61,837 bases of DNA. It comes from Gemmatimonadota bacterium. GTDB taxonomy: Bacteria > Gemmatimonadota > Gemmatimonadetes > Palauibacterales > Palauibacteraceae. The stretch is from the NCBI GenBank assembly GCA_020351855.1, contig CP070670.1, positions 1,592,767 through 1,654,603 of the forward strand, written 5' to 3'. The notes below the pieces were generated by a model. It ran no database searches and had not been told where the DNA came from. It was given only the letters and a program-made list of their open reading frames with translations. Every line of letters begins with the position of its first letter. The stretch's first letter is position 1. Position numbers and translations under genes: made by a program. Positions 10,928-61,043 of the stretch are shown here, in pieces.

Positions 10928-11181
10928 TCCTCGTCTCGATCCGTGCCTACCAGGTGGCGATCTCGCCCCTCCTCCCCGGGGCATGTCGCTACAGCCCGAC
11001 CTGCTCGCAGTATGCCTTGGAGGCGGTCTCGAGGCACGGCGCGGCGCGAGGGAGTTGGCTTGCCTTGAGACGGCTGCTCCGCTGCCATCCGTTTGGCGGC
11101 GTGGGCTACGATCCGGTCCCGCCGTCCAACCCCCGCGTCCCCGGCGAGGAACCGGGCGTCGAGCCGGGAAGAGGGCGCTGA
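10915..11181 (+). CDS. yidD: Membrane protein insertion efficiency factor
   Basis: [25 protein letters not shown]...GYDPVP. Confidence 0.95.
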
Positions 11182-13070: not shown

Positions 13071-13094
13071 GCCCGCGCGGTACGGCGCGGATGG

Positions 13095-14513: not shown

Positions 14514-14536
14514 ACCACCGGACACGGCCTCTATGA

Positions 14537-14566
14537 CGATCGCTTTACTGTGACGTAAAGCGATCG
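14537..14566. terminator. Perfect 12-bp inverted repeat between convergent mnmE and fpg-like gene
   Basis: CGATCGCTTTAC-tgtgac-GTAAAGCGATCG. There is no U-tract, so it is an atypical terminator or a protein-binding palindrome. Confidence 0.5.
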
Positions 14567-14581
14567 GGCGCCGAACGCGAC

Positions 14582-15376: not shown

Positions 15377-15480
15377 CGCATCACCTCCAAGAACCCGGGA
15401 AAGCTCGCCTCTGGGCGGATACGAGCCGGAAACGATACACCGGATCACCGCGAAAGTGCCGAGAAGGTCGAATGTGATTG

Positions 15481-15789
15481 TCAGAAGAGAACTTGGAAAT
15501 CCGGCGGCAGCGCGGGGTCGCAGGGGATCTCCTCGACACGGTCGACCCGGGCAGGCGGTGGTCCGGAGCGCAGCATCGCGGCGAACTGTCGGACTCGACG
15601 CGCGCTGCCCGCCACATGCACCTCCACCGAGCCGTCGGCGCGGTTCCGCACCGTGCCACGCAACCCGAGAAGCCCCGCCGCCTCCCGGGTCCACCAGCGG
15701 AAGCCGACACCCTGTACGCGGCCGCGCAGGATGAAACCTGTTCGTGCATCTGCCGTGTCGGCCGGATCGCGCGCGTCTTCACACATCAT
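15481..15789 (-). CDS. acyP: Acylphosphatase
   Basis: GRVQGVGFR, GTVRNRADGSVEV; start taken at ATG 15789. Confidence 0.93.
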   Translation of the reverse strand: MMCEDARDPADTADARTGFILRGRVQGVGFRWWTREAAGLLGLRGTVRNRADGSVEVHVAGSARRVRQFAAMLRSGPPPARVDRVEEIPCDPALPPDFQVLF

Positions 15790-15954
15790 GGGGATCCAAT
15801 GAGACGCCGAAAGGTAGTGCGGACGGTGCCGATACGCTCGGGGTCCGGCGGATGCCGCTGCGTTCGCGAGCCCCCGGCGGGGAACGCCATGGTGAGGCAG
15901 CAGCCGGGGTTGTTCTGAGATCTGCCTCCCGGCAATCAGCGAGAGGTCATCGAA

Positions 15955-17850: not shown

Positions 17851-17891
17851 ACGGTCTGCGGGTGGCCCGCCCACCGTCCCGACGCCGCGGA

Positions 17892-17907
17892 TGTTTCACG
17901 TGAAACG
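17892..17907. promoter_or_regulatory. parS: parS centromere site 1
   Basis: TGTTTCACGTGAAACG, one mismatch to the palindromic consensus TGTTTCACGTGAAACA. Confidence 0.9.
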
Positions 17908-18032
17908 GTCAGGACGAACGCCCCCGGTTCGGGCCGGGCGCGGAGGATACGCCTTGGCGCTACGATGGTGTGCACGCCGCAATCCGTTGCACCAAAAAAC
18001 GATCCAGGGTTTTCCACCATCGTGGATCAGTG

Positions 18033-18048
18033 TGTTTCACGTGGAACA
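18033..18048. promoter_or_regulatory. parS: parS centromere site 2
   Basis: TGTTTCACGTGGAACA, matches the consensus parS; upstream of parA. Confidence 0.92.
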
Positions 18049-18056
18049 TCCACTGC

Positions 18057-18086
18057 TTGGCGCACGTGGCTCTTCCCCTCTATATT
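18057..18086 (+). promoter_or_regulatory. Putative sigma70 promoter of parAB
   Basis: TTGGCG, 18 nt, TATATT; immediately downstream of parS site 2. Confidence 0.45.
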
Positions 18087-18242
18087 GCCCTCGTCCCGAA
18101 CATCCGCCCCCAACGACCGGCGGTCTCGGCTGTCTTTGTCAGCGAAGAGTAGTCAGGCGTTTCGGCTCAGGTATCCTCGGTCGCCGATCGAGGCCCGCCG
18201 AAATGGCCTCCGGGGCCGCCGGTTGATCCTCCAGAGGAGCTC

Positions 18243-19028
18243 ATGAGCCGAGTCATCTCGATCGCCAACCAGAAGGGGGGCGTGGGAAAGACCACGACGG
18301 CCATCAACCTCGGAGCGTCGCTCGCCATTGCGGAACGCAGGACCCTCGTCCTGGACTGCGATCCCCAGGGGAACGCCACGAGCGGGTTCGGAATCCGGAA
18401 GAACGGCAACCGACTGTCCGTATACGAGTGTGTCGTCGAGGGAAAGCCGCTGACGGAGGCGATTCACCACGAGGTTCACTTCCCCTATCTCGATGTAGCC
18501 CCCGCGAGCCGTGACCTGGCCGGTGCCGAGGTGGAGCTCATCGATCGGCCCAACCACCACCGGCGCCTGCGCAGGGCGCTCGAACCGGTGCGCGCCTCCT
18601 ACGACTACGTGCTGGTGGATTCACCCCCCTCGCTAGGCCTCCTGACCCTGAACGCGCTGACCGCCGCGGACTCCGTGATCATCCCGATTCAATGCGAGTT
18701 CTATGCCCTCGAGGGCCTGAGCCAGCTGCTCAACACGGTGCGCCTCGTACAGCGCAACATCAATCACGACCTGCAGATCGAGGGCGTACTCCTCACGATG
18801 TACGATTCGCGGCTGAACCTCTCGAAGCAGGTGGCGGCGGAAGCGCGCGAGTACTTTGGCCGCAAGGTGTTCGACACCATGATTCCGAGGAACATCCGGC
18901 TAGCCGAAGCCCCGAGCTTCGGTAAGCCGATTGCCCTGTATGATGTTCTATCCACGGGCGCTCGGGGCTACTTGAGCCTCGCCAACGAGCTGATCGAGCG
19001 CGACGAACCGAAGAGGAAAGTTGGCTAG
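18243..19028 (+). CDS. parA: Chromosome partitioning ATPase ParA/Soj
   Basis: NQKGGVGKTT, DCDPQGNAT, DSPPSLG, PIQCEFYALEG, IPRNIRLAEAPS. Confidence 0.98.
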   Translation: MSRVISIANQKGGVGKTTTAINLGASLAIAERRTLVLDCDPQGNATSGFGIRKNGNRLSVYECVVEGKPLTEAIHHEVHFPYLDVAPASRDLAGAEVELIDRPNHHRRLRRALEPVRASYDYVLVDSPPSLGLLTLNALTAADSVIIPIQCEFYALEGLSQLLNTVRLVQRNINHDLQIEGVLLTMYDSRLNLSKQVAAEAREYFGRKVFDTMIPRNIRLAEAPSFGKPIALYDVLSTGARGYLSLANELIERDEPKRKVG

Positions 19029-19893
19029 GAACGACGTACGACTCGGCAGGGGACTCGGAGCGCTGCTCGGCGAGCATCTCGACATCGTCGACGGCGAGGA
19101 GGTCGAGCTCCCACTGGAGGATCTGACCCCCAATCCTTACCAGCCGCGCACTTCGGTGTCCGAGGAAGCGCTGGCGGAGCTCGTAGCCTCGATACGCGAA
19201 CACGGGCTCTTGCAGCCCCTCGTCGTGCGCAGCCAGGGGGCCCGGTGGGAGATCGTGGCGGGCGAGCGGCGATGGCGCGCCCTGCAGATCCTGGAATGGA
19301 AGACGGCTCCCGTCATCGTGCGCGACCTCGACGATGAGCAGATGCTGCTCGTGGCGCTCGTGGAAAACCTCCAGCGGGAAGCGCTTTCGGCTCTCGAAGA
19401 GGCCCGCAGCTATCAGCAGCTGGCCGACCAGTTCGGGCTTACCCAGCAGAAGATCGCGGACCGGGTCGGCAAGGACCGATCGACCGTGGCCAACGCGCTC
19501 CGCCTGCTAACGCTGCCCCTGCCCGTGCAGGAGTTGGTCCACGCCGGTACGCTGAGCGCGGGGCACGCGAGAGCGATCCTCGGTCTCCGAGGCGAAGCGG
19601 CGCAGCGCCAGCTGGCACAGCATATCGCATCGCGCGGACTCTCCGTGCGGCAGGCCGAGCGCCGCGTACAGAAGCTTAAGGCCGCTCCCGAAGGCGTGCG
19701 CGCCAAACGTCCCGAGCCGCTGGATCCCGTCGTTCGGCGGGCCCAGCAGGCGATCGAGCGGGCGTTGGGTACGGAGGTCACCGTTCGAATGAAGGGACGG
19801 GACCGCGGCGAGATCCGCGTCCTATTCCACGACGCGGACGACTTCGACCGATTGCTCGGCCTGCTGGCCGGTCAATCCGCCTCCGAAATCTAG
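19021..19893 (+). CDS. parB: Chromosome partitioning CTPase ParB/Spo0J
   Basis: LGRGLGAL, NPYQPR, GERRWRA, ENLQRE, HTH GKDRSTVANALRL. Confidence 0.98.
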   Translation: MARNDVRLGRGLGALLGEHLDIVDGEEVELPLEDLTPNPYQPRTSVSEEALAELVASIREHGLLQPLVVRSQGARWEIVAGERRWRALQILEWKTAPVIVRDLDDEQMLLVALVENLQREALSALEEARSYQQLADQFGLTQQKIADRVGKDRSTVANALRLLTLPLPVQELVHAGTLSAGHARAILGLRGEAAQRQLAQHIASRGLSVRQAERRVQKLKAAPEGVRAKRPEPLDPVVRRAQQAIERALGTEVTVRMKGRDRGEIRVLFHDADDFDRLLGLLAGQSASEI

Positions 19894-19912
19894 AGACTCC
19901 GAGCCGGCCGTC

Positions 19913-20683
19913 ATGCGAGCCCTCCGCGGCCCTGCGTGGACGATCGTCTTCCTCCCGGGAGACGACACCGAGTCCCATTCGTTTCGTGTGCGGCGCGGCA
20001 CTGCCCTGCTGGCCGGCGGCTCGGCGATCGCGCTGCTCCTTCTGATCGGCTGGATGTCGGGTTGGGTCTGGGCGGCCGCGCGCGAATCGGCGACCATGCG
20101 TGAGCTGTCGGCGGAGGTCGAGCGTCTTTCGCTGGAGCGGACGCAGATGATGGAGCTGGCCGCTCGCCTCGAGCGGATGGAGGTCGACTACCGCCGTTTA
20201 CAGCGAGTGCTCGGCGGAAGCGGTTCGCAAAGGACGGAGAGCGAGATCTGGCTGCCCCCGATCGAAACGGAGTCGGGCGAGGCAGGTGAGGGTGCCGCGC
20301 GGCCGGAGGGTGCTCTGCTGTGGCCTCTTGCGCAGAGGGGGTACATCACCCGATCTCACCGGGCGGATGAAGGACCGGCGCACGCCGGGATCGACATCGC
20401 CGTTCCGGCCGGATCCTATGTGAGGGCGAGCGCCAGGGGGGTGGTGGCGGACGTCGGCGAGAACGGCATTTACGGTCGTTTCGTTCGGATCGACCATGCC
20501 GATGAGCTGTCGACCCTTTACGGCCACAACGCCTGGACTTTCGTCGCCGAAGGCGACTCCGTGGAGGTGCGCGAGGTCATCGCGCTGTCCGGAACCACCG
20601 GGCAGTCGACGGGCCCGCACCTGCATTTCGAGACCCGCAGGGCGGGGCGTATGATAGACCCCCTCGAGCTCGTGGGTCCCTAG
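19913..20683 (+). CDS. Membrane-anchored M23 peptidase (TM + coiled coil + LytM domain)
   Basis: HAGIDIA, YGHN, STGPHLHFE. Confidence 0.92.
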   Translation: MRALRGPAWTIVFLPGDDTESHSFRVRRGTALLAGGSAIALLLLIGWMSGWVWAAARESATMRELSAEVERLSLERTQMMELAARLERMEVDYRRLQRVLGGSGSQRTESEIWLPPIETESGEAGEGAARPEGALLWPLAQRGYITRSHRADEGPAHAGIDIAVPAGSYVRASARGVVADVGENGIYGRFVRIDHADELSTLYGHNAWTFVAEGDSVEVREVIALSGTTGQSTGPHLHFETRRAGRMIDPLELVGP

Positions 20684-22417: not shown

Positions 22418-22466
22418 TTCCCGACAACATGACGCCCGTGTGGTTTCCGGTCGCTGGAGCCGTGCG

Positions 22467-22682
22467 ATGCCAGAATCTGTCAAGCTGAGCAGCAAGCACC
22501 AGATCGTAGTGCCGCGCGAAGCGAGAGAGGCACTGAATCTCAAACCGGGCGATCGCCTGATCGTCACGGCTCGCGACGACGCGGTTATCGAAATCGAGAA
22601 GGAGCCGGCGGACGTGATGGCCGACCTGAAGGGCCTCTTCGCCGCCCTCGGCCCGCAGGCGTGGTCGGAGCTGGGTGAGTAG
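22467..22682 (+). CDS. AbrB/MazE/SpoVT-family antitoxin (VapB-like)
   Basis: MPESVKLSSKHQIVVPREAREALNLKPGDRL; GGAG SD; overlaps the PIN gene. Confidence 0.9.
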   Translation: MPESVKLSSKHQIVVPREAREALNLKPGDRLIVTARDDAVIEIEKEPADVMADLKGLFAALGPQAWSELGE

Positions 22683-23136
22683 CCGGGCAGCCTTCCAGAG
22701 TCGACTGGAGGAGGCGCACCGGATTCACATCGACCCTATCGTAATAGCCTATCATTTGTTAGGCACATCTTCATATGTAGACCTCACAACGCTATTGTTT
22801 GCAGGGATTCACGCCGAGACGATCAGAGCTCAGACGTCGGCGCTCTCCGTGTATCAGCTCCTCGTAGAGCCGTATCGAAAGGGCGAGGAGGAGCTTGCGC
22901 TTCGAGCGTTCAAGTATCTTGGCAGCCAGCCCGGCCTAGAGATCGTTCCCGTGACCGCAAGGATCGCTCGACAGGCGGCCGAGGTGAAGGCGAGGCTGGG
23001 CGGCTCACCCGAACGGGCCGTGCAGCTGGCAACCGCCCTGCTGGGTGGCAGCAGGGCCTACTTGGCGATCAAGTCCAGCCTGAGAAGGATCGCTGGCATG
23101 GAGATCATCAACCTGGAGGACTTCGCGACAGGCTGA
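22675..23136 (+). CDS. PIN-domain (VapC-like) protein with degenerate active site
   Basis: PIN layout (IHID..., SALSVYQLLVEP, LEIVPVTARIARQAA, LATA) directly behind an AbrB-type antitoxin; most catalytic acids replaced. Confidence 0.8.
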   Translation: MSSRAAFQSRLEEAHRIHIDPIVIAYHLLGTSSYVDLTTLLFAGIHAETIRAQTSALSVYQLLVEPYRKGEEELALRAFKYLGSQPGLEIVPVTARIARQAAEVKARLGGSPERAVQLATALLGGSRAYLAIKSSLRRIAGMEIINLEDFATG

Positions 23137-49622: not shown

Positions 49623-49692
49623 CCGATTGCCGCGGTCACTCGCCTCGGGTAGCTTCCCGTGCTCCGCTCTGCCACTGGAAAGGTCACACGTC

Positions 49693-50874
49693 ATGCACGT
49701 TTTCGCTAAGTGCGAGAACTTCACGACATCCCGCGAGCTCCGCGCGATCGGCCTGTATCCCTACTTCCAGCCGATCGAGGAGTCGTGCGACACGACTGTC
49801 GTCATCGGGGGCGAGCGGAAGGTCATGGTAGGATCCAACAACTACATGGGCCTCACGCACGATCCGAGGATTCTAGAGGCCGCCAGGCATGCGCTCGATC
49901 GCTACGGCAGCGGCAATACGGGAAGCCGCTTTCTCAACGGAAACCTGGATCTTCACGACCGACTCGAGGGCGAGCTCGCCGACTTCGTCGGCAAGGAGGC
50001 GGCCCTCGTGTTCAGCACCGGATACCTCACCAACCTGGGCACGCTGGCGGCCCTGATCGGACGAAACGACACAGTGTTCGTCGACAAGCTGGATCACGCG
50101 TGCATTCAGGACGGCGCCCGGCTCGGATTCGGGCAGGTCCAGCGGTTCAACCACGGGGACTACGACAAGCTGCGGCAGATGCTGGCAGCGGAGAAGGAGG
50201 AGCGCGGCAAGCTCGTCGCGGTGGACGGCGTGTACAGCATGGAGGGCGATATAGCCGACCTGCCGACCCTTGTCCGGCTGTCCTCCGATTTCGGAGCCGG
50301 GCTGGTGGTGGATGATGCCCACTCCCTCGGCGTGGTCGGGCCACGCGGGAACGGGACGGCGGCCCACTTCGGCCTGACCGAGGAAGTGGACCTGATCACC
50401 GGTACGTTCTCGAAGTCCTTCGCGTCGATCGGGGGCTTCGTGGCCGGCACGGCGACGATCTGCGAGTATCTGCGCAACAACGCCCGGGCACTGATCTTCA
50501 GCGCGAGCATGCCTCCCGCCGCCGTCGCCACGGTCCTCAAGGCCCTCGAGATCATTCGTGACGAGCCCGAGAGGCGGGAGCAGCTGTGGAAGAACACGCG
50601 GAAGATGATGGAGGGCTTCCGCGCGATCGGCTTCGAGATCGGCCCGACCGAGACCCCGATCATACCGATCCTTGTCGGACCGATGGACAAGACCTTCCGC
50701 TTCTGGCGCGAGCTCTTCGATGCCGGGGTGTTCACCAATCCCGTCGTGCCGCCCGCCGTTCCCGAGGGAAGCTGCCGGCTCCGGACGAGCTATATGGCCA
50801 CCCACACCGACGAACAACTGGACTTCGTGCTCGAGTGCATCGAGAGGATCGGCAAGAAGCTCCAGGTCGTGTGA
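49693..50874 (+). CDS. spt: Serine palmitoyltransferase (PLP-dependent alpha-oxoamine synthase)
   Basis: YPYF, GSNNYMGL, GSRFLNG (SPT-type, unlike KBL SVRFICG), DHAC, DDAHS, GTFSKS, PPAVP; genomic context. Confidence 0.88.
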   Translation: MHVFAKCENFTTSRELRAIGLYPYFQPIEESCDTTVVIGGERKVMVGSNNYMGLTHDPRILEAARHALDRYGSGNTGSRFLNGNLDLHDRLEGELADFVGKEAALVFSTGYLTNLGTLAALIGRNDTVFVDKLDHACIQDGARLGFGQVQRFNHGDYDKLRQMLAAEKEERGKLVAVDGVYSMEGDIADLPTLVRLSSDFGAGLVVDDAHSLGVVGPRGNGTAAHFGLTEEVDLITGTFSKSFASIGGFVAGTATICEYLRNNARALIFSASMPPAAVATVLKALEIIRDEPERREQLWKNTRKMMEGFRAIGFEIGPTETPIIPILVGPMDKTFRFWRELFDAGVFTNPVVPPAVPEGSCRLRTSYMATHTDEQLDFVLECIERIGKKLQVV

Positions 50875-50896: not shown

Positions 50897-52066
50897 GTGA
50901 ATCAGGCGGCCCCCGTAAGAGCCGTTCAGGCAGAGCATTCCGGATCCGTCAGCGTCATCGCGGCGTGCCCGCGCAGCGACGAGATGGAGGCATTCATCCG
51001 CCTTCCCTGGTCGATCTACGAGGGGTATCCGCTGTGGGTGCCGCCGCTCCTCCGCGACATGCGTCTGATGATGGATCCGGAGCGCCATCCGTTCTACCGG
51101 CACTCCGATGTGCAGGCTTTTCTGGCGCTCCGTGGGGGCCGTCCGGTAGGCCGGATCGCGGCCATCCACAACCGGCGGCACATCGAGTTCCAGGAAGAGA
51201 ACACCGGCTTCTTCGGCTTCTATGAGTGCGAGCCGGACGACACGGCGTCGAACGCCCTTCTGGATGCCGCCGCGGACTGGCTGCGCGAGCGTGGCATCGG
51301 CACCATGCGAGGGCCGACGAGCTTCTCGACGAACGAGCAGGTCGGCCTGCTGGTCGAAGGCTTCGACGATCCGCCCTCGGTGATGATGAACTACAATCCC
51401 CCGTACTACGAGGGGCAGTTCCAGGGCTATGGCCTCAAGGTGTCCCAGCGCCTCGTCGCCTACTTCCTCCATGCGCCCGCGCCCCCGGAGTATCTCGTGC
51501 GGGCGGCCCGGGTCGTGGAACGGCGCACCGGAGTCCGGCTTCGGAGCCTGAGCAAGCGCCACTTCGGTCGCGATCTGGAGATCATTCGGGACCTGTACAA
51601 CTCGGCCTGGGAGCGCAACTGGGGATTCGTCCCCATGACGGATGACGAGATCGATCACATGGCCCAGGAGCTGAAGCCCGTCGTCGATCCACGCCTGGCG
51701 CTCATCGGAGAGGATGAGAACGGCCGTCCGGTCGGGTTCGCCCTCGCCCTGCCCGATTTCAACCAGGTGCTCCGGCACCTGAACGGCCGTCTCTTGCCCT
51801 TCGGCCTGCTCAAGGCTCTGTGGCTTCGTCGGAAGATCGATCGGCTGCGAGTCCTCACGCTGGGTGTCCACGACGACTATCGGGGGAAGGGACTCGACGC
51901 GCTCTTCTATCTCGCCATCTTCCGCGGCGGAAACTCGCAGGGCATCGATCGGGGCGAGTTCTCTTGGGTGCTCGCGGAAAACGCCCGGATGAGGAAGCCG
52001 CTCGAACGGATGGGCGCCCGAGTCTACAAGCGCTACAACCTGTATGATGTGTCGCTCCAGGCCTGA
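50897..52066 (+). CDS. GNAT-family protein, bacterial ceramide synthase (bCerS)-like
   Basis: FIRLPWSIY, WVPPL, GRIAAI, GFFGFYE, GP.SFSTNE.VGLLVEGF, YNPPYY, WGFVP, EFSWVLAEN; 22 bp after spt. Confidence 0.82.
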   Translation: MNQAAPVRAVQAEHSGSVSVIAACPRSDEMEAFIRLPWSIYEGYPLWVPPLLRDMRLMMDPERHPFYRHSDVQAFLALRGGRPVGRIAAIHNRRHIEFQEENTGFFGFYECEPDDTASNALLDAAADWLRERGIGTMRGPTSFSTNEQVGLLVEGFDDPPSVMMNYNPPYYEGQFQGYGLKVSQRLVAYFLHAPAPPEYLVRAARVVERRTGVRLRSLSKRHFGRDLEIIRDLYNSAWERNWGFVPMTDDEIDHMAQELKPVVDPRLALIGEDENGRPVGFALALPDFNQVLRHLNGRLLPFGLLKALWLRRKIDRLRVLTLGVHDDYRGKGLDALFYLAIFRGGNSQGIDRGEFSWVLAENARMRKPLERMGARVYKRYNLYDVSLQA

Positions 52067-52113: not shown

Positions 52114-53073
52114 GTGAGCCGGCGCCGTGTCCTGATCACGGGTGCGACAGGCTTTCTCGGCAGCCATGTCGCGGCACTCTGGGTGAAGTCGGGCCATCGG
52201 GTTCGCTGCACCCTGCGCTCGACCAGCGACACCCGCTGGCTGGAGGGCCTGGATGTGGAGCGCGTGGAGTGGGACGCCCGGGAGGGAGAACGTCTGGATG
52301 CCGCCCTGCGCGGCATCGACACCGTGGTGCATGTCGCTGGCGTGACGCGGGCGCCCCGCAGGGAGGACTACTTCCGTGTGAACGCGACGGGTGCCGGTCG
52401 ACTGGCGGAAGCGGCGGCATCCGCCGGCGTGTCGCGGTTCGTTCTCGTAAGCAGCCTCGCGGCTCGCGGGCCGGACGGCGGCACCGGTCCCGTGAGCGCT
52501 TACGGTGAGAGCAAGCGGCGCGGCGAGGATCTGGTTCGCCTGTTCGAGTCGCGCATGGAGGTCGTCATACTGCGGCCGGGAGGGATCTACGGTCCGCGGG
52601 ATACGGACCTTTTCCCCCTCTTCGATACGGCGAGCAAGGGCTGGTTGGTCGCACCTGCGGGCAGTCCGCCGCTGCAGCCGGTTTACGTGACCGATGTCGC
52701 CCGCCTGACAGTCGCTGCGGGGACGGTGACCCAGCCGGGCGTCGGGCCTTACCCGGTGGCGGAGCCGGGACGCTACGGGTGGTCGGAGGTCCGCGAGGGC
52801 CTCGCCGCGGCGCTGGGGCGACGGGTGCGGGGAGTCCGGCTTCCCAAGGCGATCTTCATCCTCGCGGGCATCATCGCCGAGGCCGGCGCAAGGCTGACCG
52901 GAACCGATCCGGTCCTGGACCGCCGGAACGCCGTGGATCTGAGTCGACACGGCTGGACCTGCGACACGACCCCCACCTGCGACGCGTTCGGCTGGGAGGC
53001 CGAGGTCGCCCTGCGCGATGGACTGGCTCTGACCGCGGACTGGTACCGACGCGTCGGCTGGCTGAAGGCCTAG
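52114..53073 (+). CDS. SDR epimerase/dehydratase, ceramide reductase (CerR)-like
   Basis: TGATGFLG, HVAG, FVLVSSLAAR, YGESK, RPGGIYGPRDT, TADWYRRVGWL; context. Confidence 0.78.
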   Translation: MSRRRVLITGATGFLGSHVAALWVKSGHRVRCTLRSTSDTRWLEGLDVERVEWDAREGERLDAALRGIDTVVHVAGVTRAPRREDYFRVNATGAGRLAEAAASAGVSRFVLVSSLAARGPDGGTGPVSAYGESKRRGEDLVRLFESRMEVVILRPGGIYGPRDTDLFPLFDTASKGWLVAPAGSPPLQPVYVTDVARLTVAAGTVTQPGVGPYPVAEPGRYGWSEVREGLAAALGRRVRGVRLPKAIFILAGIIAEAGARLTGTDPVLDRRNAVDLSRHGWTCDTTPTCDAFGWEAEVALRDGLALTADWYRRVGWLKA

Positions 53074-53097: not shown

Positions 53098-53958
53098 ATG
53101 AAGGGAGGCTCGGGCCTGCTGGCGATCGATCGTGTGGCGATCGGCTATCTGGCCCTCAGCGGTTCGCTCGCTCTGACTGGCGGCCTGCCCGGTCTGGCGC
53201 TCGCCTCCCTTCACGGAGCGGCGATCCTCCTGATCCTGCGCTTGGCCCGGAGACCCCTCCCATCGGGCCGGGTGGCCACGTTTGTCCGGCTGCTCTACCC
53301 GGTGATCGCGACGCCCCTCCTCTACCACGAGATCTCCATTCTCAACCGATTCATCTTTCCCGACTACTTCGACCCCATCGTGCAGGGCTGGGAGCTTGCC
53401 CTGTTCGGGTCGCAGCTGAGTCAGGAGCTCGCCGGCCGCCTCCCCGCGCTCTGGTTGTCCGAGTTCATGACACTCGGCTACCTGACCTACTACTTCCTCA
53501 TACCTCTGCTAGGGATCGCGGCCTGGCGCGCCGGGGGACGTGCCGGCTTCCATCGCTTCGCCGTCTCCGTGGCCCTCGCCTTCGTGGTCTGCTACGTCTG
53601 GTTCATCCTTTTCCCGGTGATGGGTCCGCGGTACTGGTACGGGGCCCTGGAGGGGGCGCTTTCGGAGGGCACCTTCAATCGTTTCGCCCGCGACCTCCTC
53701 GAGAGCGGCTCGTCGAAGGGCACCGCATTTCCGAGCTCCCACGTCGCCGCCACCTGCGCGGCCTGGGTCGCGGCGGCCCGCGAAGATTTGCGGCCGTTTT
53801 TTCTGGCCTCCGTGCCCGTGGCCACCCTCGCGATCGGCACGGTCTGGGGAGGATATCACTACGCTGTGGACGCTTCCGCCGGCATCCTCGTCGCCGCGGC
53901 CGTCCTTTCGGTCGCGCCTCGAGTGGCTGCCTCTGCGCCGGTGCCGCCCGACCTCTAA
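53098..53958 (+). CDS. PAP2-superfamily membrane protein, AUR1/inositol-phosphoceramide-synthase-like
   Basis: About 6-7 TM, FPVMGPR, AFPSSHVA, GGYHYAVD (His/His/Asp triad). Confidence 0.82.
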   Translation: MKGGSGLLAIDRVAIGYLALSGSLALTGGLPGLALASLHGAAILLILRLARRPLPSGRVATFVRLLYPVIATPLLYHEISILNRFIFPDYFDPIVQGWELALFGSQLSQELAGRLPALWLSEFMTLGYLTYYFLIPLLGIAAWRAGGRAGFHRFAVSVALAFVVCYVWFILFPVMGPRYWYGALEGALSEGTFNRFARDLLESGSSKGTAFPSSHVAATCAAWVAAAREDLRPFFLASVPVATLAIGTVWGGYHYAVDASAGILVAAAVLSVAPRVAASAPVPPDL

Positions 53959-54052: not shown

Positions 54053-54361
54053 ATGGAGTCACTGGAGATCCTCGCGCCGGCCATCATCACCGTCATCCTG
54101 ATCCTGACGGTGGGCGCCGTGGTCCTTCTCAGGCCCCTGTCGAAGCAGGGAGCGGCGCTGCTCGAACAGATGCTCAAGGACCGCAGGGAGGGCCGGGAAG
54201 GCCATCAGGTCGAGCATCTGACGGGCGCACTGGCGAACCTGTCGGACCGGGTGAGCCTGCTGGAGGAGAGGCTCACGTTTACGGAGTCGCTGATCGAGGC
54301 TCAACCAGGCGGGCGTGCCAGGATAGCGTCTGGCGCGGACGCGCCGCCGCCGGATGATTGA
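54053..54361 (+). CDS. Small single-TM coiled-coil protein (PspB-like architecture)
   Basis: GGAGG SD, one TM helix, then LSDRVSLLEERLTFTESL heptads. Confidence 0.7.
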   Translation: MESLEILAPAIITVILILTVGAVVLLRPLSKQGAALLEQMLKDRREGREGHQVEHLTGALANLSDRVSLLEERLTFTESLIEAQPGGRARIASGADAPPPDD

Positions 54362-54386
54362 GGGGCCCGGCATTCGCGCCGCACGG

Positions 54387-54412
54387 GCAACCCTAGCGGA
54401 CCGTCGTGCGTC
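54387..54412 (+). promoter_or_regulatory. Putative ECF-type autoregulatory promoter
   Basis: GCAACC, 16 nt, CGTC; 28 nt upstream of the ECF sigma start; fits the generic AAC/CGT ECF pattern. Confidence 0.5.
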
Positions 54413-54440: not shown

Positions 54441-54995
54441 GTGGAAGAGCGGGCACTCGTAGACCGCGCCAAGGCCGGCGACCGCATCGCGATGGGTGAG
54501 TTGTACCAGGCACACGCGCGGCGCGTGTACGCCGTGGTCCGGCGGCTGGCGGGCGATGACGATCTGGCGGCGGACCTGTCGCAGGACGCGTGGGTGCGGG
54601 CGTTCGAGCGCCTGCACCTCTATCGCGGCGATGCGGCATTCGGGACGTGGATCCACCGCCTGGCGACGAACGTGGCTCTCAATCGGCTGCGGAGAAGGAC
54701 GAAGCGACCGGAAGTGGAGCGTGCGGCCCTCGGCATGCCGACGTACGAGAAACCGTCCGATGATGCGGTGATCAGCCGTCGAATGTTGAGCGAGGCGCTG
54801 GACAGGCTGCCGGAAGGATATCGACGGGTGCTGTTGCTGCACGATGTCGAGGGCTGGACGCACGAGGAGATTGGGGAGTCGCTCGGCATCGCCTCCGGGA
54901 CTTCCAAATCACAACTTCACAAGGCGAGGGCGCGGATGCAGCAGTTGATCGCGCCTGCACCCCTGGCCGAAGAAGCAGGAAACGGCTTGACATGA
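54441..54995 (+). CDS. ECF RNA polymerase sigma factor
   Basis: DLSQDAW, FGTWIHRLATN, LPEGYR, EGWTHEEI...GTSKSQLHKAR. Confidence 0.95.
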   Translation: MEERALVDRAKAGDRIAMGELYQAHARRVYAVVRRLAGDDDLAADLSQDAWVRAFERLHLYRGDAAFGTWIHRLATNVALNRLRRRTKRPEVERAALGMPTYEKPSDDAVISRRMLSEALDRLPEGYRRVLLLHDVEGWTHEEIGESLGIASGTSKSQLHKARARMQQLIAPAPLAEEAGNGLT

Positions 54996-55684
54996 GCGAG
55001 ATGAAGTCCGAACACCTGACGCTCGAGATGATCTCGTTGCTGCTCGAGGAGCCCGAGGCGCAGGCAGAGGCCGCGGCGCACGTTGCGGTTTGCGAGCTCT
55101 GCAGCAGCGAGCACGCGCGAATGCGTCGCATGCTGATGGCGCTGTCGGCGCTCGGAGAGATGGAGCCGCCGGCCGGCGAATGGGAGCGCATCGAGGCGAG
55201 CCTGCCGCGTCGGCGGGACGTTCTGGCGCTGCGTCCGGCGAGCCTGTTCACGGGCTGGCCCGCGCAGGCAGCCGCCGCCATGCTCGTGTTCGCGGGCGGA
55301 ATCGCAGCCGGCCTGATGATCATGGGCGGTCCCGCGGATGCGGACCGAGTGGCTGACAGGGGGTCGATCCCCACCATCGATGAGCCGGTGGCGAGCCGGC
55401 CCGTCACGACACCGGTCTCCGAGGAGTACTACCGGGCGGTGGCCGGACTCGAGCAGCTGAGAGCCCAGCCGCCTGGCTCCGGAGAGCTCCTGCAGAATCC
55501 GGCGGCAGCCGCCGAGCGGCTCGCGCGTCTCGACGCGCTCATCCTGGCGTCGCGTGAGGCGCTGGATGCATCCCCGACCGATCCGGCGGTGAACAATCTT
55601 CTGTTCGAGCTCGTGGAGGAGCGGGATGAGTTGGCGGCCGGTGTTGCGGGTGCCGTCCGCATGGCGGGACTGGAATACCGGTAG
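54992..55684 (+). CDS. Zinc-binding (ZAS) membrane anti-sigma factor
   Basis: ATGA overlap with the sigma gene; HVAVCELC (Hx3Cx2C), one TM helix, helical periplasmic domain. Confidence 0.85.
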   Translation: MSEMKSEHLTLEMISLLLEEPEAQAEAAAHVAVCELCSSEHARMRRMLMALSALGEMEPPAGEWERIEASLPRRRDVLALRPASLFTGWPAQAAAAMLVFAGGIAAGLMIMGGPADADRVADRGSIPTIDEPVASRPVTTPVSEEYYRAVAGLEQLRAQPPGSGELLQNPAAAAERLARLDALILASREALDASPTDPAVNNLLFELVEERDELAAGVAGAVRMAGLEYR

Positions 55685-55730
55685 GATCGGGTCAATCGAC
55701 GTGCGCCGGAGGGGTTGGACTAGAAGGAAG

Positions 55731-56945
55731 ATGATGACGTTTCGCCTGACCGTTCTTTCGATCGGCTGCGTCCTCGCGCTCGCGACGGCTGCGGGTCCGT
55801 CGGGGCCGAGAAGCCTGCTCGCCCAGCAGCCGTCGCCGGACGCTCCGCCTCCTCCACGCGCTGGCAGTCCGCAGGACGCGCCTTCCCGGCCCGAGGCGCC
55901 GAAGGCGTGGCTCGGGGTCGGCCTGGAGAAGCGACAGGAGTGTCGGGCGGACGCGCCCGGTGAATGCCGGGTGATCCTCGTGATCAGTTCCGTCGTCGTC
56001 GGCAGCCCGGCCGAGGCGGCGGGCGTCGAGGTGGGAGATCTTCTGGTGTCGCTCGATGCCGCCGCGCCGGGGACCAGCGAGTTTCAGACGGGGCTGGACG
56101 GCCTCGAGGTCGGTCGGGCCGTCGTGCTCGAGGTGAGGCGCGACGGACGCACCGTAGGCCTGGAGGTCATGCCGGCGCCGCGACCGCCCAAGCCGGTGCA
56201 GGTCAAAACGCGGCCGAGCGCGGTGTGGGCCTGGAAGACGCCCGAGGGCGAAGTCAAGATCCCGATCCACATCGAGCCCCGCGACTCGACCGGAGCAACG
56301 GTCTGGTCGTATGGAGACGAGGGCGAAGGGTACGTGATCGTCGTTCCGAGCGAGGACGGATGGCGGGTGCAGGTGCTGGGGGAGAATGCGGAAGGCGAGG
56401 GCCGCGAGGCGTTGCCCGGCCTGAGCATCGAGCTCCGAGACCTCGAACGACACCTGGAGGGCGTTGAAGAGGAGATGGCGCGCGCGGCGCGAGAGCAGGT
56501 GAGGTACTGGGGGCGCGTTAAGGCGGAGCTCGGGCCGGAGATGGCGGCGCTGCGTGACTCCGTTCTGGCGGAAGCCCGCGCCAAGCTTGCCGAGGTTCGG
56601 GAAGCCCGAAAAGCCTATCGAACCGAGGAGGCAAGGATCCGATACGAGAGGTCACCGCACCTCGTCGAGATCACGCGCCGGATCGCGGGAGCGGAATTCG
56701 AGCCACTCGGCACCGATCTCGAACATGACGGTCAAGAAAAGGGTTTGCTGGTGCTGCGCGTGATTCCCGGCACGCCGGCCTTCGACCTCGGCCTCCGGCG
56801 CGGCGATGTCGTGGTCGAGGTGGCAGGAGCCGAGTGCAGTTCCGTCTCGGACCTGCGGGCCGCCCTCGTCGATCCAGGCGGGGAGAGCGTGCAGGTGAAG
56901 TGGATCCGCAAGGGGGAAGTCATGACGGGGGCCCTCAACGACTGA
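55731..56945 (+). CDS. Exported tandem-PDZ protein without protease domain
   Basis: Signal peptide; PDZ1 WLGVG...GSPAEAAGVEVGD; coiled coil; PDZ2 GLLVLRV.PGTPA..LGLRRGDVV; no trypsin GxSGG motif. Confidence 0.8.
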   Translation: MMTFRLTVLSIGCVLALATAAGPSGPRSLLAQQPSPDAPPPPRAGSPQDAPSRPEAPKAWLGVGLEKRQECRADAPGECRVILVISSVVVGSPAEAAGVEVGDLLVSLDAAAPGTSEFQTGLDGLEVGRAVVLEVRRDGRTVGLEVMPAPRPPKPVQVKTRPSAVWAWKTPEGEVKIPIHIEPRDSTGATVWSYGDEGEGYVIVVPSEDGWRVQVLGENAEGEGREALPGLSIELRDLERHLEGVEEEMARAAREQVRYWGRVKAELGPEMAALRDSVLAEARAKLAEVREARKAYRTEEARIRYERSPHLVEITRRIAGAEFEPLGTDLEHDGQEKGLLVLRVIPGTPAFDLGLRRGDVVVEVAGAECSSVSDLRAALVDPGGESVQVKWIRKGEVMTGALND

Positions 56946-57089
56946 GGCCCGGCCGCCCCACAGGTCGGTTTCCCAGCCGACGCTCGGCCTCTCGTAGCTC
57001 GCCGCCACCCGTCCCACGCTGCTGCTGGGGCACGCTGCGAGCGCGACCATGCCCTGTCGCCTCCGTTTCGGTGACCTGATCTTGCCCTC

Positions 57090-58232
57090 ATGCAGGATGA
57101 CGCTGACCCACCCGGGGGCGAGCCGGAGGGTTTCCGGGTCCTGGCCGACGAACTGAAGCGCGAGTTCCGGAGCTGGATGTCGGATCCCGTCGTGTGGCCG
57201 GCCGAGCGCGTGGACGAACTGGCGCGTCGGACGTTCGCCTTGCAGGTCTCCGGCAACCGAGCCTACGGGAGCTACTGCCGCCGCCTCGGGGTGGCCCCAC
57301 CCGCCGTCCATGGCTGGCGCGACGTGCCGCCGGTTCCGACGGCGGCGTTCCGCGAGGTACCCCTCGTTGTCGGGGAGCCGCGCGATGCCGTGCTCGAGTT
57401 TCGCACGAGCGGCACGACGCGCGGTTCGCAGCGGCGCGGATATCACCTCGTGCGCGATCCCGAGCTGTACCGAGCCTCACTCACGGCGACCTTCTATCGC
57501 TTCGTCATCACCAAGGCGGCGGGCCGAGGTCGCCTGCCTATCGCATCGCTCGTGCCGCCGTTCGACCAGGCGCCGCACTCTTCGCTCTCCTGGATGGCCG
57601 ATGCCGTGGTCGAGCGGTTCGGGACCCGGAACTCGGAGTGTTTCGCAGCGGGAGCGGGGGTGGACTGGCCGGGTGCCGGGCGCTTCCTCGCCCGTGCCGA
57701 GGAACGCGGGAAGCCCGTGTGCCTGTTCGGGACGACGCTGGCGTTCGACGAGTGGACGCGGAGGTTGATGGAAACGGGACGGCGGTTTCGGCTGCCGGAC
57801 GGCTCCGTCGCAATGGACACGGGCGGTTCAAAGGGACGCGACTACCTGATCCGTGACGAGGTGGTGGCGCGGCTGCACTCCTGCCTGGGGCTGCCCCCCG
57901 GCAATGTCGTCAACGAGTTCGGGATGACGGAGCTTCTGTCCCAGCGATACGGCACCCCCGAGGCTTTGGTCGCCCCTCCCTGGCTGCGGACGCGGTCGCT
58001 GGACCCGGTGACTCTCGAGGAGCTGCCGGAAGGGGAGACGGGGATCCTGAACCACTTCGACCTGGCGAACGCGGGCAGCGTGTGCAGCGTGCTCACCGAG
58101 GATCTCGGCTCGGTGGCGGGCGGGAGGGTGCGATGGGAGGGCCGGGTGCCCGGCGCGCCCCCGCGGGGCTGCTCTCTGGCCACGGCGGACCTCCTGCGTT
58201 CGCAGACGGGGACGGTGGGGGAGGATCGATGA
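57090..58232 (+). CDS. LuxE-family acyl-protein synthetase
   Basis: FRTSGTT, MDTGGSKG, NEFGMTELLSQRY, PPWLR, DLAN..SV..VLTEDLG, C-terminal acylation motif PRGCS. Confidence 0.9.
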   Translation: MQDDADPPGGEPEGFRVLADELKREFRSWMSDPVVWPAERVDELARRTFALQVSGNRAYGSYCRRLGVAPPAVHGWRDVPPVPTAAFREVPLVVGEPRDAVLEFRTSGTTRGSQRRGYHLVRDPELYRASLTATFYRFVITKAAGRGRLPIASLVPPFDQAPHSSLSWMADAVVERFGTRNSECFAAGAGVDWPGAGRFLARAEERGKPVCLFGTTLAFDEWTRRLMETGRRFRLPDGSVAMDTGGSKGRDYLIRDEVVARLHSCLGLPPGNVVNEFGMTELLSQRYGTPEALVAPPWLRTRSLDPVTLEELPEGETGILNHFDLANAGSVCSVLTEDLGSVAGGRVRWEGRVPGAPPRGCSLATADLLRSQTGTVGEDR

Positions 58233-59650
58233 CAGAGGAGAACGCCGAGATCCGCGGCGGTCGTCGCTCCGTCTTCCACCTACCCGGGCTCGATCCCGGG
58301 CCCCGGATGAGTTCCGGGTGGTTCGAGGGGGCGACTCCGGCCGGCCTTCGTTTCCGCGCGCCCAACCTGACGAGCGAGGGCGCGTCGCGGGCAGCCGATC
58401 GGGTCTCGGAGGCGGCAGCGTTGGCTCAGCGGCACCGGACGCTCGCGCAGGTCGTCAGCGCCGCGGCCGAGGCTGCGGGGAGGCTTGTCGATCCCACCTC
58501 CTGCGCGGGAAGCGAAGCCCTCCAGGTACTGCGCGAGGAACTCGCCTGGCCGGAGTCCGTGGCTCGAGAAACGCTGCTCGGGATGGGCCGGATTTGGACC
58601 GAACAGGCCCTGTGGGAGGTGATCCGGTCGGAGCTTCCGGATCCCGCCGTGCTGGAGGGCTTCAGCCCCTCCAGCGAGTCGCGGGCGCGACGCGCTTCCG
58701 GACCCCGGCTTCTGCTGCAGGTCGTGTCCGCCAATGTGCCGGGCGTTGCGGTGACGGGAGTCATCCGGGCCCTGCTCTGTCGCTCGGGCGTCCTCGTCAA
58801 GCTGCCGGAGGACGGGCCCGGGCTGGTCGTGCTTTTCGCGCGATTGCTGGCCGAGGCGGATCCGGTGCTCGGAGACGCCGTTGCCGCCACCTGGTGGCCT
58901 TCAGCGCTCGAATGCCCGCTCTGGCAGACGTGGGTGGCCCGCGCCTCCCGAATCGTAGTGTACGGAGGAAAGGCCGCCGTAGAGGGCGTGCGCGGGCGTG
59001 CGCGGACCGATCAGGACGTCCTGGCATACGGACCGAAACTGGGCGTTGCCGTCGTGCTGCCGGATATGGATCTGGCGCCCGCAGCGCGGGGGCTGGCACG
59101 GGACATCTGCGCCTACGAGCAGCAGGGGTGCGTGTCCCCGCGCCTGATCTTCACCCTCGGCCCCCCGGCCGAGCTCGCCCAGGAGCTGGCGCCCGCCCTG
59201 TCCGGCGAAGTGGCACGTCTGGGGCTGCCGCCTCTTCGGCCCGAAGAGGCCGTGGCCATCCGATCGCTCCGCGCCGAAGTCGAGTTCCGAGGCTACGGCG
59301 GTAGCGCGAGCCGGGTCGTGGCGAGCGGGGAGGACCTCGCTTGGACGATACTGATCGACGACCCGCCCAGCCTCGAGAGCGTTTCCCTGCCACGCGTGGT
59401 GCGGCTGTCGCACATCGGCTCGGTTGAGGCGCTGCGCGAGTCCCTGCGGCCGCTGGAGGGCCGCATTCAGGTCCTCGGGTACGCCGGCGGCGGAGGGCAG
59501 CTCGCGCTCCTGGCCGAAGCGGCCGCAGCCCTGCGCGTGAGCCGGATCACGCCCGTGGGCCGAATGGCCTGGCCGCCGGCCGATTGGCGCCATGACGGTC
59601 GCTTCCAGCTGCTCCCCCTTCTCGACTGGACGGAGTGGGAAGTGGAGTGA
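58229..59650 (+). CDS. LuxC-family acyl-CoA/acyl-protein reductase
   Basis: ATGA overlap with luxE-like gene; SANVPG, VLVKLP, VVYGG..AV, AYGPKLG, DICAYEQQGCVSP (catalytic Cys), HDG. Confidence 0.9.
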   Translation: MTEENAEIRGGRRSVFHLPGLDPGPRMSSGWFEGATPAGLRFRAPNLTSEGASRAADRVSEAAALAQRHRTLAQVVSAAAEAAGRLVDPTSCAGSEALQVLREELAWPESVARETLLGMGRIWTEQALWEVIRSELPDPAVLEGFSPSSESRARRASGPRLLLQVVSANVPGVAVTGVIRALLCRSGVLVKLPEDGPGLVVLFARLLAEADPVLGDAVAATWWPSALECPLWQTWVARASRIVVYGGKAAVEGVRGRARTDQDVLAYGPKLGVAVVLPDMDLAPAARGLARDICAYEQQGCVSPRLIFTLGPPAELAQELAPALSGEVARLGLPPLRPEEAVAIRSLRAEVEFRGYGGSASRVVASGEDLAWTILIDDPPSLESVSLPRVVRLSHIGSVEALRESLRPLEGRIQVLGYAGGGGQLALLAEAAAALRVSRITPVGRMAWPPADWRHDGRFQLLPLLDWTEWEVE

Positions 59651-59738: not shown

Positions 59739-61043
59739 ATGGCGAACAGAGGCAGAGTGCTCGAATCGGAAGCAGGCAGACGCGCTCACGTGCGTCAGCG
59801 TCGGCTGCGCGACGTGTGGAGACGGTACGCCCAGTATCTGGCCGCGCCTCCGGAGACGCTCGTGGAGTGGAACGACGCGAAGAGCGGTGCCCGCGGATGG
59901 CTCGCCCTCAACAGCCTGCGGGGCGGCGCCGCGGGCGGCGGTACCCGGATGCGGCCCGGCCTGGAACGTGACGAGGTCGTCTACCTCGCGAAGATCATGG
60001 AGTTGAAGTTCGCCTTTTCCGGTCCGCCCATCGGAGGGGCGAAGTCGGGCATCTGCTTCGACCCGAGCGACCCCCGGAAGGAGGAAGTCCTGGGACGGTG
60101 GTTCACGGCCATCAACCCGTTTCTCAGATCCGTCTACGGGACCGCCGGCGACCTCAACGTCGATGAAGGCAAGGAGGTGCTGCCGATCTGCGGGCGACTC
60201 GGGCTTGCCCACCCGCAGGAGGGAGCGTTGCGCGGACACTATCGGCTCCAAGGGGAGCCGCTCGCGCGGCGGCTCCGGGCCATGACCACCGGAATCGAGC
60301 AGAAGACCGGTCGGTCCTTCTCTCCGTCCGGCTGGGACGGCAGCGTGTCCGATCTCGTCACCGGCTACGGAGTCGCCGCCGCGGCGAAGCGGCTGCTCGC
60401 CCTGCAGGGGCGGAGCGTCGAGGGCGTCCGCGTTCTGCTGGAAGGTTTCGGGTGTGTCGGTGGCGGGGCGGCCCACTTCCTCGCGGAGGCGGGGGCCCGC
60501 ATCGTCGGCATCGTGGACGTCCAGAACGGTCTGGTGAGCCCGGAAGGGTTGGACGCAGAGGGGGTCGCGGAGTTGCTGGCCCGGCGCAGCCGCAACGAGC
60601 TTCCGGTCACATCGCGGGAACAAGGACAGAGGGACAGGGCGGCGTTCCGCGAGGTGCCGGCCGACCTGTTCGTCACGGCCGCGGCATCCGGCACGCTGAC
60701 GGCCGATGCTCTCGATCAGATGGAGGCGCAAGGAGTACGTGCCATCGTCTGCGGCTCCAACCTGCCGTTCGCTTCGGTGTCTCCAGAAGACACCGCTCTG
60801 CAGGCGGATGCCGACACCCGCTTCGCCATCGTCGCGGACTTCATCGCGAACCTCGGCGCGGCTCATGCCTTCGCGTTCCAGATGGCACGGGATGACGCGG
60901 CCTCGGTCAGCGAGTTCTTCGGTTCGGTCGCGGCCACCGTGGAGGGTGCGCTGGACGAGGCGGCCGAGCGAGCCGGTTCCCCGGAGCACCGCCTTCTCGC
61001 CGCTGCCCTGGACATGGCGCTGGAGAGGATCGCCGAGGAGTGA
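59739..61043 (+). CDS. Glu/Leu/Phe/Val dehydrogenase family protein
   Basis: GGAAGGGTRM, MELKF, GGAKSGI, GDLNV, TGYGV, EGFGCVGG, IVADFIANLG. Confidence 0.88.
   Translation: MANRGRVLESEAGRRAHVRQRRLRDVWRRYAQYLAAPPETLVEWNDAKSGARGWLALNSLRGGAAGGGTRMRPGLERDEVVYLAKIMELKFAFSGPPIGGAKSGICFDPSDPRKEEVLGRWFTAINPFLRSVYGTAGDLNVDEGKEVLPICGRLGLAHPQEGALRGHYRLQGEPLARRLRAMTTGIEQKTGRSFSPSGWDGSVSDLVTGYGVAAAAKRLLALQGRSVEGVRVLLEGFGCVGGGAAHFLAEAGARIVGIVDVQNGLVSPEGLDAEGVAELLARRSRNELPVTSREQGQRDRAAFREVPADLFVTAAASGTLTADALDQMEAQGVRAIVCGSNLPFASVSPEDTALQADADTRFAIVADFIANLGAAHAFAFQMARDDAASVSEFFGSVAATVEGALDEAAERAGSPEHRLLAAALDMALERIAEE

Follow-up and report, generated by a model that had tools for sequence, protein, structure and literature searches.

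A luxE-luxC-like gene pair without luciferase genes beside a ceramide gene cluster in Gemmatimonadota

Results

The luxE-luxC pair in its locus

The 61.8-kb stretch of Gemmatimonadota DNA analysed here (hereafter the window) carries two adjacent genes, one luxE-like and one luxC-like (together luxEC), that resemble the genes for the fatty acid reductase of luminous bacteria. A first-pass annotation of the sequence had described them as a pair coupled through an ATGA overlap, downstream of sphingolipid genes, and had proposed two roles: supply or recycling of acyl donors for ceramide synthesis, or production of an aldehyde or alcohol for another lipid. Pfam profiles, PDB matches and direct reading of the sequence agree with that description of the pair, the features of which are as follows.

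57090-58232, plus strand: luxE-like gene, 380 amino acids; acyl-protein synthetase, adenylate-forming, with a PaaK-type N-terminal domain and no C-terminal subdomain
58229-59650, plus strand: luxC-like gene, 473 amino acids; acyl-thioester (acyl-protein/acyl-coenzyme A (CoA)) reductase of the aldehyde dehydrogenase (ALDH) superfamily
58229-58232, plus strand: luxE/luxC start/stop overlap ATGA, with the luxC ATG at 58229-58231 and the luxE TGA at 58230-58232
58170-58172, plus strand: Cys361 codon of the luxE-like gene; this residue of the C-terminal RGCSL motif, invariant across the two Gemmatimonadota clades, is where self-acylation is predicted
59129-59131, plus strand: Cys301 codon of the luxC-like gene; this invariant cysteine (YEQQGCVSPR) is predicted to be catalytic and to accept the acyl group

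Both are real genes rather than chance open reading frames (ORFs), as judged from their G+C content at third codon positions (0.81-0.85), the numbers of homologues recovered (188 proteins at E<=1e-5 with the LuxC-like query and 2100 at E<=1e-3 with the LuxE-like query) and the presence of the locus in four metatranscriptome assemblies. The window itself has 65-70% G+C, and its closest relatives are all metagenome-assembled Gemmatimonadota. As had been noted previously, the pair belongs to the same plus-strand run as the serine palmitoyltransferase gene spt: every gene from spt (49693) to pyrF (61750) lies on that strand, and luxE starts 3.1 kb past the end of the PAP2_3 gene (53958) that closes the sphingolipid cluster. 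Downstream of luxC come a Glu/Leu/Phe/Val dehydrogenase-family gene and then pyrF. The dehydrogenase-family gene (59739-61043) is strongly divergent in sequence, scoring 88 bits against NCBIfam glutamate dehydrogenase cut-offs of ~540-820.

The LuxE-like protein

The LuxE-like protein matches the Pfam family LuxE (PF04443; E=6.3e-11, 42.2 bits against a cut-off of 24.9), and its sole PDB sequence match is the LuxE chain 7xc6_E (E=1.6e-11). Against the NCBIfam equivalog NF052244 it scores only 50.9 bits, with a cut-off of 550. In an alignment of 69 Gemmatimonadota homologues drawn from two deep clades, the motifs TSGT..G, TGG.KG, NE.GMTE..SQ, PPW.R, H.DLAN and GR..G..PRGCS are invariant, the last of them including the PRGCS motif of the first-pass annotation.

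In Photobacterium phosphoreum LuxE (PpLuxE), the PaaK-like domain for adenylation has no C-terminal subdomain; a flexible C-terminal acylation motif, TRxxKGCxLS, takes its place and bears the acylated Cys364, and the other key residues are Arg355 and, within the loop GGGWKTKQK, Lys238 (PMC9157457). Each has a counterpart here. Cys361 (PRGCSL) corresponds to Cys364 within 358-TRxxKGCxLS-367, and the spacing from the invariant arginine (R352 here, R355 in PpLuxE) to the cysteine is nine residues in both proteins. K248 (TGGSK248G) and R352 are equivalent to PpLuxE K238 and R355, and are invariant in 69 and 24 homologues. An AlphaFold2 (AF2) model (mean predicted local distance difference test score (pLDDT) 86) has as its best fold matches the N-terminal domains of PaaK1/2, with template modelling (TM) scores of ~0.6 over ~360 columns; the tail at residues 357-380, which carries Cys361, is flexible and of low confidence, and the C-terminal subdomain is missing. 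PaaK-type aryl/acyl-CoA ligases (PDB 2Y27, 2Y4O, 4R1M) are thus the best structural matches for the N-terminal domain, but the LuxE-like protein has, in place of their mobile C-terminal subdomain, a tail of ~30 residues with an acceptor cysteine, and the acyl acceptor is therefore expected to be the protein itself rather than CoA.

The LuxC-like protein

The LuxC-like protein covers positions 6-399 of the 401 in the Pfam LuxC profile (PF05893; E=7.5e-50, 170.4 bits against a cut-off of 21), and 7xc6_A is its sole PDB sequence match (E=3.7e-18). It too scores below its NCBIfam equivalog cut-off (NF052251; 75.9 bits against 750). Since both proteins score far under these cut-offs, we regard them as members of the two families, not as orthologues of the luminescence enzymes. 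The LuxC-like family is of modest size but widespread, with 2201 representative clusters at E<=1e-3 and 183 at 1e-30.

The acylation site of P. phosphoreum LuxC (PpLuxC) is Cys296 (PMC9157457). C301 of the window protein (YEQQGC) aligns with the cysteine of PpLuxC YDQQAC, and the QQGC motif, also reported in the first-pass annotation, is invariant in 22 homologues. Other invariant motifs are NVPG, VYGG and YGPK, and in the sequence alignment Y267-G-P-K falls at the position of PpLuxC FGPK. This [YF]GPK position may correspond to that of Glu268 in the ALDH motif 'ELGGK', the general base for hydrolysis, whose absence would suit a reductase rather than a dehydrogenase. The AF2 model (pLDDT 88) finds 7xc6_A as its top Foldseek match (E=6.5e-23, TM 0.82, root-mean-square deviation (rmsd) 3.2), and ordinary ALDHs rank after it (TM 0.63-0.73, rmsd 4.3-6.5).

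Search for luciferase and carrier-protein genes

A family-profile scan of all called ORFs of at least 70 amino acids across the window gave no match to the luciferase, LuxD or acyl carrier protein (ACP) families; none of luxA, luxB, luxD or luxG is present in the 61.8 kb, just as the first-pass annotation had stated. A tblastn search of the window with Escherichia coli AcpP was likewise empty, and with the profile scans it upholds the further claim that the window holds no dedicated ACP or acyl-ACP synthetase.

The pair might still serve bioluminescence if the genome carried luxA (and luxB or luxD) at another site, a split arrangement that we consider very improbable. Rearranged lux operons that lack luxB do occur in non-classical taxa, which lends the idea some substance, yet the luxA-like genes described there share an operon with luxC and luxE (bioRxiv 10.1101/2023.02.27.530324). 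Neither the 62-kb window nor the flanks of eight related loci, annotated with Pfam, showed a luciferase-like gene, ~90 other luxC-bearing loci having been compared with the window's own proteins only, and the two proteins lie far under the Lux equivalog scores.

Neighbouring ceramide and sigma blocks

Two blocks of genes precede luxE. They were assigned from Pfam or NCBIfam matches and, for the sigma block, also from translations.

49693-50874, plus strand: spt; best NCBIfam match serine palmitoyltransferase NF047600 (527 bits)
50984-52066, plus strand: bcerS-like GNAT gene (Pfam)
52114-53073, plus strand: cerR-like short-chain dehydrogenase/reductase gene (Pfam)
53098-53958, plus strand: PAP2_3 gene (Pfam PAP2_3, PF14378)
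54441-54995, plus strand: extracytoplasmic function (ECF) sigma factor (Pfam/NCBIfam)
54992-55684, plus strand: anti-sigma factor (Pfam/NCBIfam)
55626-56945, plus strand (ORF; likely start 55728): secreted or membrane-anchored two-PDZ protein (Pfam/NCBIfam, translation)

Between the blocks lies a small ORF (54053-54361, 102 amino acids), for which a single membrane helix is predicted, with a charged and possibly helical stretch after it; it has no family match and is kept only in the six closest relatives.

Two sets of loci were used for comparison: a LuxC-anchored set of 78 genome loci, onto which the window proteins were mapped, and a bCerS-anchored set consisting of L079-L083 in Gemmatimonadota and 80 more distant metagenome loci with 40-54% bCerS identity. 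Next to bcerS in the distant loci we found spt in 56, cerR in 46 and PAP2_3 in 30. The PAP2_3 gene follows cerR in those 30 of 80 diverse loci (L089-L168), which suggests that spt-bcerS-cerR-PAP2_3 is a widespread unit of four genes, probably making a ceramide with a phospho-head-group.

The sigma block has a narrower distribution. In every Gemmatimonadota locus examined, including those without luxEC, the ECF sigma/anti-sigma/two-PDZ module directly follows spt-bcerS-cerR-PAP2_3, and in 45-49 related loci luxE comes straight after the module. The 80 more distant bcerS loci lack it, none of them having the PDZ gene. The ECF-type motif before the sigma gene (see below) looks autoregulatory, and the module may provide envelope-stress control of ceramide synthesis.

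Coupling and transcription units

Nearly all of ~70 related loci have either a luxE-luxC overlap (ATGA, GTGA or ATGCTTGA) or a spacing of just a few bases, and a stop/start overlap is found again in two distant pairs from other lineages (L087, L088), a recurrence that fits two subunits working as a complex. Promoter-like motifs were found before luxE, the sigma gene and spt, each of a different kind.

57054-57092, plus strand: promoter-like element at the luxE ATG; CTGTCG (57054-57059), 18 nucleotides, GATCTT (57078-57083), 6 nucleotides, ATG
54386-54412, plus strand: ECF-type promoter motif GGCAACC-N16-CGTC, ~55 nucleotides before the sigma gene, from motif enrichment
49627-49655, plus strand: conserved promoter-like TTGCCG-N17-TAGCTT, ~60-80 nucleotides upstream of spt, with a leader that has a Shine-Dalgarno-like run

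The luxE element was searched for with the pattern [CT]TGT[CG]N-N15-19-NANNT[TC]-N4-9-ATG, in frame with luxE, and random 240-nucleotide windows served as the control. It was found in 26 of 50 clade-1 loci, as against 0.3% of random windows, and its conserved form reads [CT]TGTCG-N17-18-(C)A[CG]AT[TC]-N6-7-ATG. As the element abuts the start codon, a leaderless mRNA is predicted, and luxEC appears to form its own transcription unit. The ECF-type motif stands at about -55 of the sigma gene in ~25 of 44 loci. An ECF regulon that also takes in luxE and spt was considered and rejected, since GGCAACC-N16-CGTC occurs there only as scattered chance matches. A single long operon from spt to luxC also appears less likely, the motif work pointing to three units; a simple scan for terminators and sigma-70 promoters gave nothing exceeding shuffled sequence.

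In nine related loci (L013, L019, L025, L029, L030, L034, L053, L065 and L084; for example L084:15743-16267, minus strand), a divergent gene for a 4HBT/4HBT_2 hotdog thioesterase, missing from the window, lies between the PDZ gene and luxE, so that in those loci luxE needs a promoter of its own. The thioesterase could be a stand-in for LuxD, releasing free fatty acid.

Metatranscriptome contigs offer a further, if coarse, view. RNA contigs start at 57075 (X25) and 57089 (X26), at or just before the luxE ATG, but one X27 contig runs across the gap in front of luxE. The contigs are unstranded, of low depth and even over genes of both strands, and DNA contigs span the gap too; the RNA is compatible with a separate luxE unit but is suggestive only. 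Another X25 RNA contig (58031-60034) runs from luxE through luxC into the dehydrogenase-family gene. Apparent joints in X25 and X27 contigs (50217/59239 and 53950/59268) skip 5-9 kb, with unrelated letters between the two sides, and are most likely low-depth assembly chimeras rather than real molecules.

Separability of the blocks across loci

Four configurations were seen. In the first, shared by ~35 loci and by essentially all clade loci with at least 40% LuxC identity and enough upstream sequence, the conserved order is that of the window: spt-bcerS-cerR-PAP2_3, then ECF sigma-anti-sigma-PDZ, then luxE-luxC. In the second, represented by L079-L083, the ceramide and sigma blocks are present without luxEC at the locus; one of these loci, L083, keeps the patatin and M23 genes upstream and the dehydrogenase gene downstream, so that luxEC specifically is missing from it. 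In the third (L047, L049), the sigma block and luxEC occur without the upstream ceramide genes. In the fourth, luxEC stands alone, in the 19 loci of clade 2 (29-34% LuxC identity), where its neighbours are Lon, a GcvT-like protein, Pyr_redox_3, MscS and a molybdopterin oxidoreductase. The Pyr_redox_3 flavoprotein gene adjoins luxEC in clade 2 (for example L072:6987-8702) and in L087. Neither luxE nor luxC occurs in any of the 80 distant bcerS loci. The pair is thus not a regular, co-inherited component of bcerS loci, its adjacency to them being limited to one clade.

Insertions and losses occur between and outside the blocks, not inside them. One of these is a gene for a secreted M1-family aminopeptidase (~670-790 amino acids), found between luxC and the Glu/Leu dehydrogenase gene in most relatives (L007, L010-L018, L021, L023, L026-L028, L031, L035-L037 and others; for example L017:11473-13491) and missing from the window and its closest relatives.

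Unrelated neighbours (patatin, the M1, M20 and M23 peptidases, Glu/Leu dehydrogenase and a BTAD/AAA regulator) are kept across these loci as well. The luxEC locus also lies ~40-50 kb from dnaA, with dnaN, yidC, mnmE/G and parAB in the same region, a part of the chromosome that may have well-preserved gene order. Given these neighbours and this position, the synteny may be simply inherited, and we rejected it as proof of function. The origin-type gene set occupies 7235-20683 of the window and comprises dnaN (7235-8338, minus strand), dnaA (8665-10053, minus strand), yidC, mnmE, mnmG, parA, parB and an M23 peptidase gene.

Possible acyl-donor supply

The first role proposed in the first-pass annotation would mean that LuxE activates a fatty acid and that LuxE or LuxC passes the acyl group, as a thioester, to CoA or directly to Spt/bCerS, replacing an ACP and its acyl-ACP synthetase. 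The chemistry is conceivable: Spt takes acyl-CoA or acyl-ACP (PMC11087976), and LuxC can be acylated by acyl-CoA (PMC9157457), which makes the reverse transfer possible in principle. In addition, neither the window nor the related loci hold an ACP or acyl-ACP synthetase gene, and the adjacency to spt-bcerS-cerR-PAP2_3 is kept in ~35 loci. The arrangement also recalls the Caulobacter-type ACP and acyl-ACP synthetase, in which an ATP-dependent acyl-activating enzyme is likewise encoded beside spt, bcerS and cerR; here, however, the enzyme is of a different family, no carrier protein is involved, the partner is a reductase and the pair is missing from all 80 distant bcerS loci.

Nothing beyond adjacency, conserved in one Gemmatimonadota clade, was found to support this role, and much speaks against it. 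Sister lineages hold the ceramide and sigma blocks without luxEC at the locus (L079-L083), luxEC is widespread without ceramide genes nearby, the promoter-like element of luxE is its own and differs from that of spt, and LuxC retains all conserved features of the reductase scaffold, which mere acyl transfer would not need. We therefore regard acyl-donor supply as improbable, and the tie to sphingolipids suggested in the first-pass annotation is supported only in part.

Possible envelope-lipid remodelling

A second possibility is that the aldehyde or alcohol made by LuxEC modifies a ceramide or an outer-membrane lipid in a lineage-specific manner, the ceramide operon, the ECF sensor and luxEC forming one island. 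The three blocks are contiguous with almost no insertions, while the flanks vary (amine oxidase, Pyr_redox and M8 peptidase genes upstream, the M1 peptidase gene downstream); the sigma-anti-sigma-PDZ block is linked both to ceramide genes, in L079-L083, and to luxEC, in L047 and L049; and the thioesterase beside luxE in nine loci could free a fatty acid as LuxD does. On the other hand, the ECF promoter motif was not found before luxE or spt, no enzyme encoded in the block is a candidate consumer of the aldehyde or alcohol, and the equal conservation of non-lipid neighbours (M23, Glu/Leu dehydrogenase, M20, BTAD regulator) and the nearness of dnaA apply here as well. We judge such remodelling unlikely, though conceivable. 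In a looser form of this tie, an envelope lipid derived from the aldehyde or alcohol, or the salvage of fatty acids, could be coordinated with ceramide synthesis and the ECF sensor.

Substrate and distant relatives

The substrate could also be a carboxylic acid other than a long-chain fatty acid, a reading that we likewise hold to be improbable. Identity to true LuxC and LuxE is only ~15-20%, and residues at the entry to the LuxC cleft differ from those of PpLuxC (F297 for V302, S166 for V173), but the substitutions are hydrophobic and compatible with an acyl chain. The LuxE domain of Vibrio cholerae RfbN, which has a proposed part in O-antigen tetronate synthesis, is the sole non-lux role that we found put forward (PMC4772473), and it sets a precedent for other acids; in none of the configurations, however, does luxEC have sugar-nucleotide or polysaccharide genes beside it, and the thioesterase neighbour in nine loci also favours a fatty acid. 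Distant pairs adjoin lytic transglycosylase genes rather than lipid genes, which counts in favour of a different substrate.

An SLT lytic transglycosylase gene adjoins the distant luxC-like gene in three loci (L085, L087 and L088), luxC being paired with luxE in L087 and L088, and no luxE being called in L085. The contexts of these three genes are of a housekeeping type (SLT, a thioredoxin-domain protein, Pyr_redox and gas-vesicle genes) and are uninformative on the substrate.

Other content of the window

At 22440-22682 a MazE/AbrB-type antitoxin-like ORF overlaps the start of a 153-amino-acid ORF without a Pfam match (the two together spanning 22440-23136); they may encode a toxin and its antitoxin. 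No match came from scanning the window for Rfam families or tRNA genes.

Discussion

Of the LuxCE systems, only that of luminescence has been characterised biochemically; the literature that we searched contains few papers on luciferase-less homologues of LuxC or LuxE, and none that gives a function. On this point our search agrees with the first-pass annotation, which knew of no defined function for such pairs. We interpret the pair of the window as a stand-alone, two-component Lux-type fatty acid reductase that depends on ATP and NAD(P)H, and as an accessory module separate from ceramide synthesis rather than one of its steps, a reading that we consider rather probable, though well short of certain. 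Lineages that produce ceramide do not require luxEC, nor is it restricted to them, and it can be lost or sit elsewhere.

By homology with the P. phosphoreum enzymes, the LuxE-like protein would use ATP, with Lys248 and Arg352 taking part, to adenylate a free fatty acid and would then move the acyl group to Cys361 in its own flexible tail. From the tail the group would pass to Cys301 of the LuxC-like protein, and reduction of the thioester by NAD(P)H would yield a fatty aldehyde. The stop/start overlap may keep the two subunits balanced for complex formation. Probably the aldehyde is then converted to an alcohol or finds some other use in an envelope lipid; alternatively, the pair may salvage free fatty acids. 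The second role suggested in the first-pass annotation, an aldehyde or alcohol for another lipid, is plausible.

Several observations weigh against this interpretation. Identity to LuxC and LuxE is low, at 15-20%, and the chain length and class of the substrate are taken from homology; equivalog scores are correspondingly poor (51 against 550 bits for LuxE, 76 against 750 for LuxC). The adjacency to the ceramide and sigma blocks persists down to ~45% LuxC identity, and such conserved adjacency could be a real functional tie that we have underrated. With respect to transcription, the luxE promoter call is built from a motif and two RNA contig ends, and one X27 RNA contig reads across the gap before luxE.

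The LuxC-LuxE fatty acid reductases of luminous bacteria (P. phosphoreum, PDB 7xc6; Vibrio harveyi) are the closest well-described systems. They share with the window pair the two families and the fold, the LuxE lysine loop, arginine and C-terminal [KR]GCxL, the QQxC cysteine of LuxC with [FY]GPK at the aligned position, the adjacent, co-translated genes and, as predicted from sequence, the conversion of fatty acid, ATP and NADPH to aldehyde. The window pair differs from them in its ~15-20% identity and scores under the NCBIfam equivalog cut-offs, in a gene order (luxE-luxC with a stop/start overlap and no luxA, luxB, luxD or luxG in the window) unlike that of luxCDABE, and in its host, Gemmatimonadota being a non-luminous-type phylum. 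A second comparison is with the LuxC/LuxE-like pairs found in bacteria that do not luminesce (PF05893/PF04443; the Riemerella anatipestifer luxE homologue AS87_03730 is one example), which are likewise luciferase-less, paired or fused, often set in housekeeping-type neighbourhoods and without an assigned biochemical function. Unlike those pairs, luxEC is embedded in one large clade in a conserved block beside a ceramide operon and an ECF sigma module, a context unreported for the others in the literature searched; nothing was found there that links LuxC or LuxE to sphingolipids, or Gemmatimonadota to Spt/bCerS.

In its broadest form, this context would make the three units one envelope-lipid island of a single large, mostly marine-sediment Gemmatimonadota clade, in which LuxEC gives an aldehyde, an alcohol or a salvaged acyl group to an undescribed sphingolipid or outer-membrane lipid. 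We think this unlikely; if true, it would for the first time give a non-luminescent LuxCE pair a physiological role.

In conclusion, LuxC/LuxE-like pairs are common in non-luminous bacteria, with no established role in the literature searched, and the pair of the window adds a member to a known enzyme family; its neighbourhood is a lead, not a finding. The family does offer a clean, motif-complete example in Gemmatimonadota, and, with its complete motifs and reproducible neighbourhood, could reasonably be chosen for an initial test of the biochemistry, in which the aldehyde output could be read with a LuxAB reporter. For the ceramide cluster of these bacteria, luxEC is not generally needed. 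The constant companion of that cluster in Gemmatimonadota is instead the ECF sigma/anti-sigma/PDZ module, which may be a better lead on the regulation of bacterial ceramides. The pair itself is ordinary, and this module is the more promising by-product of the analysis.

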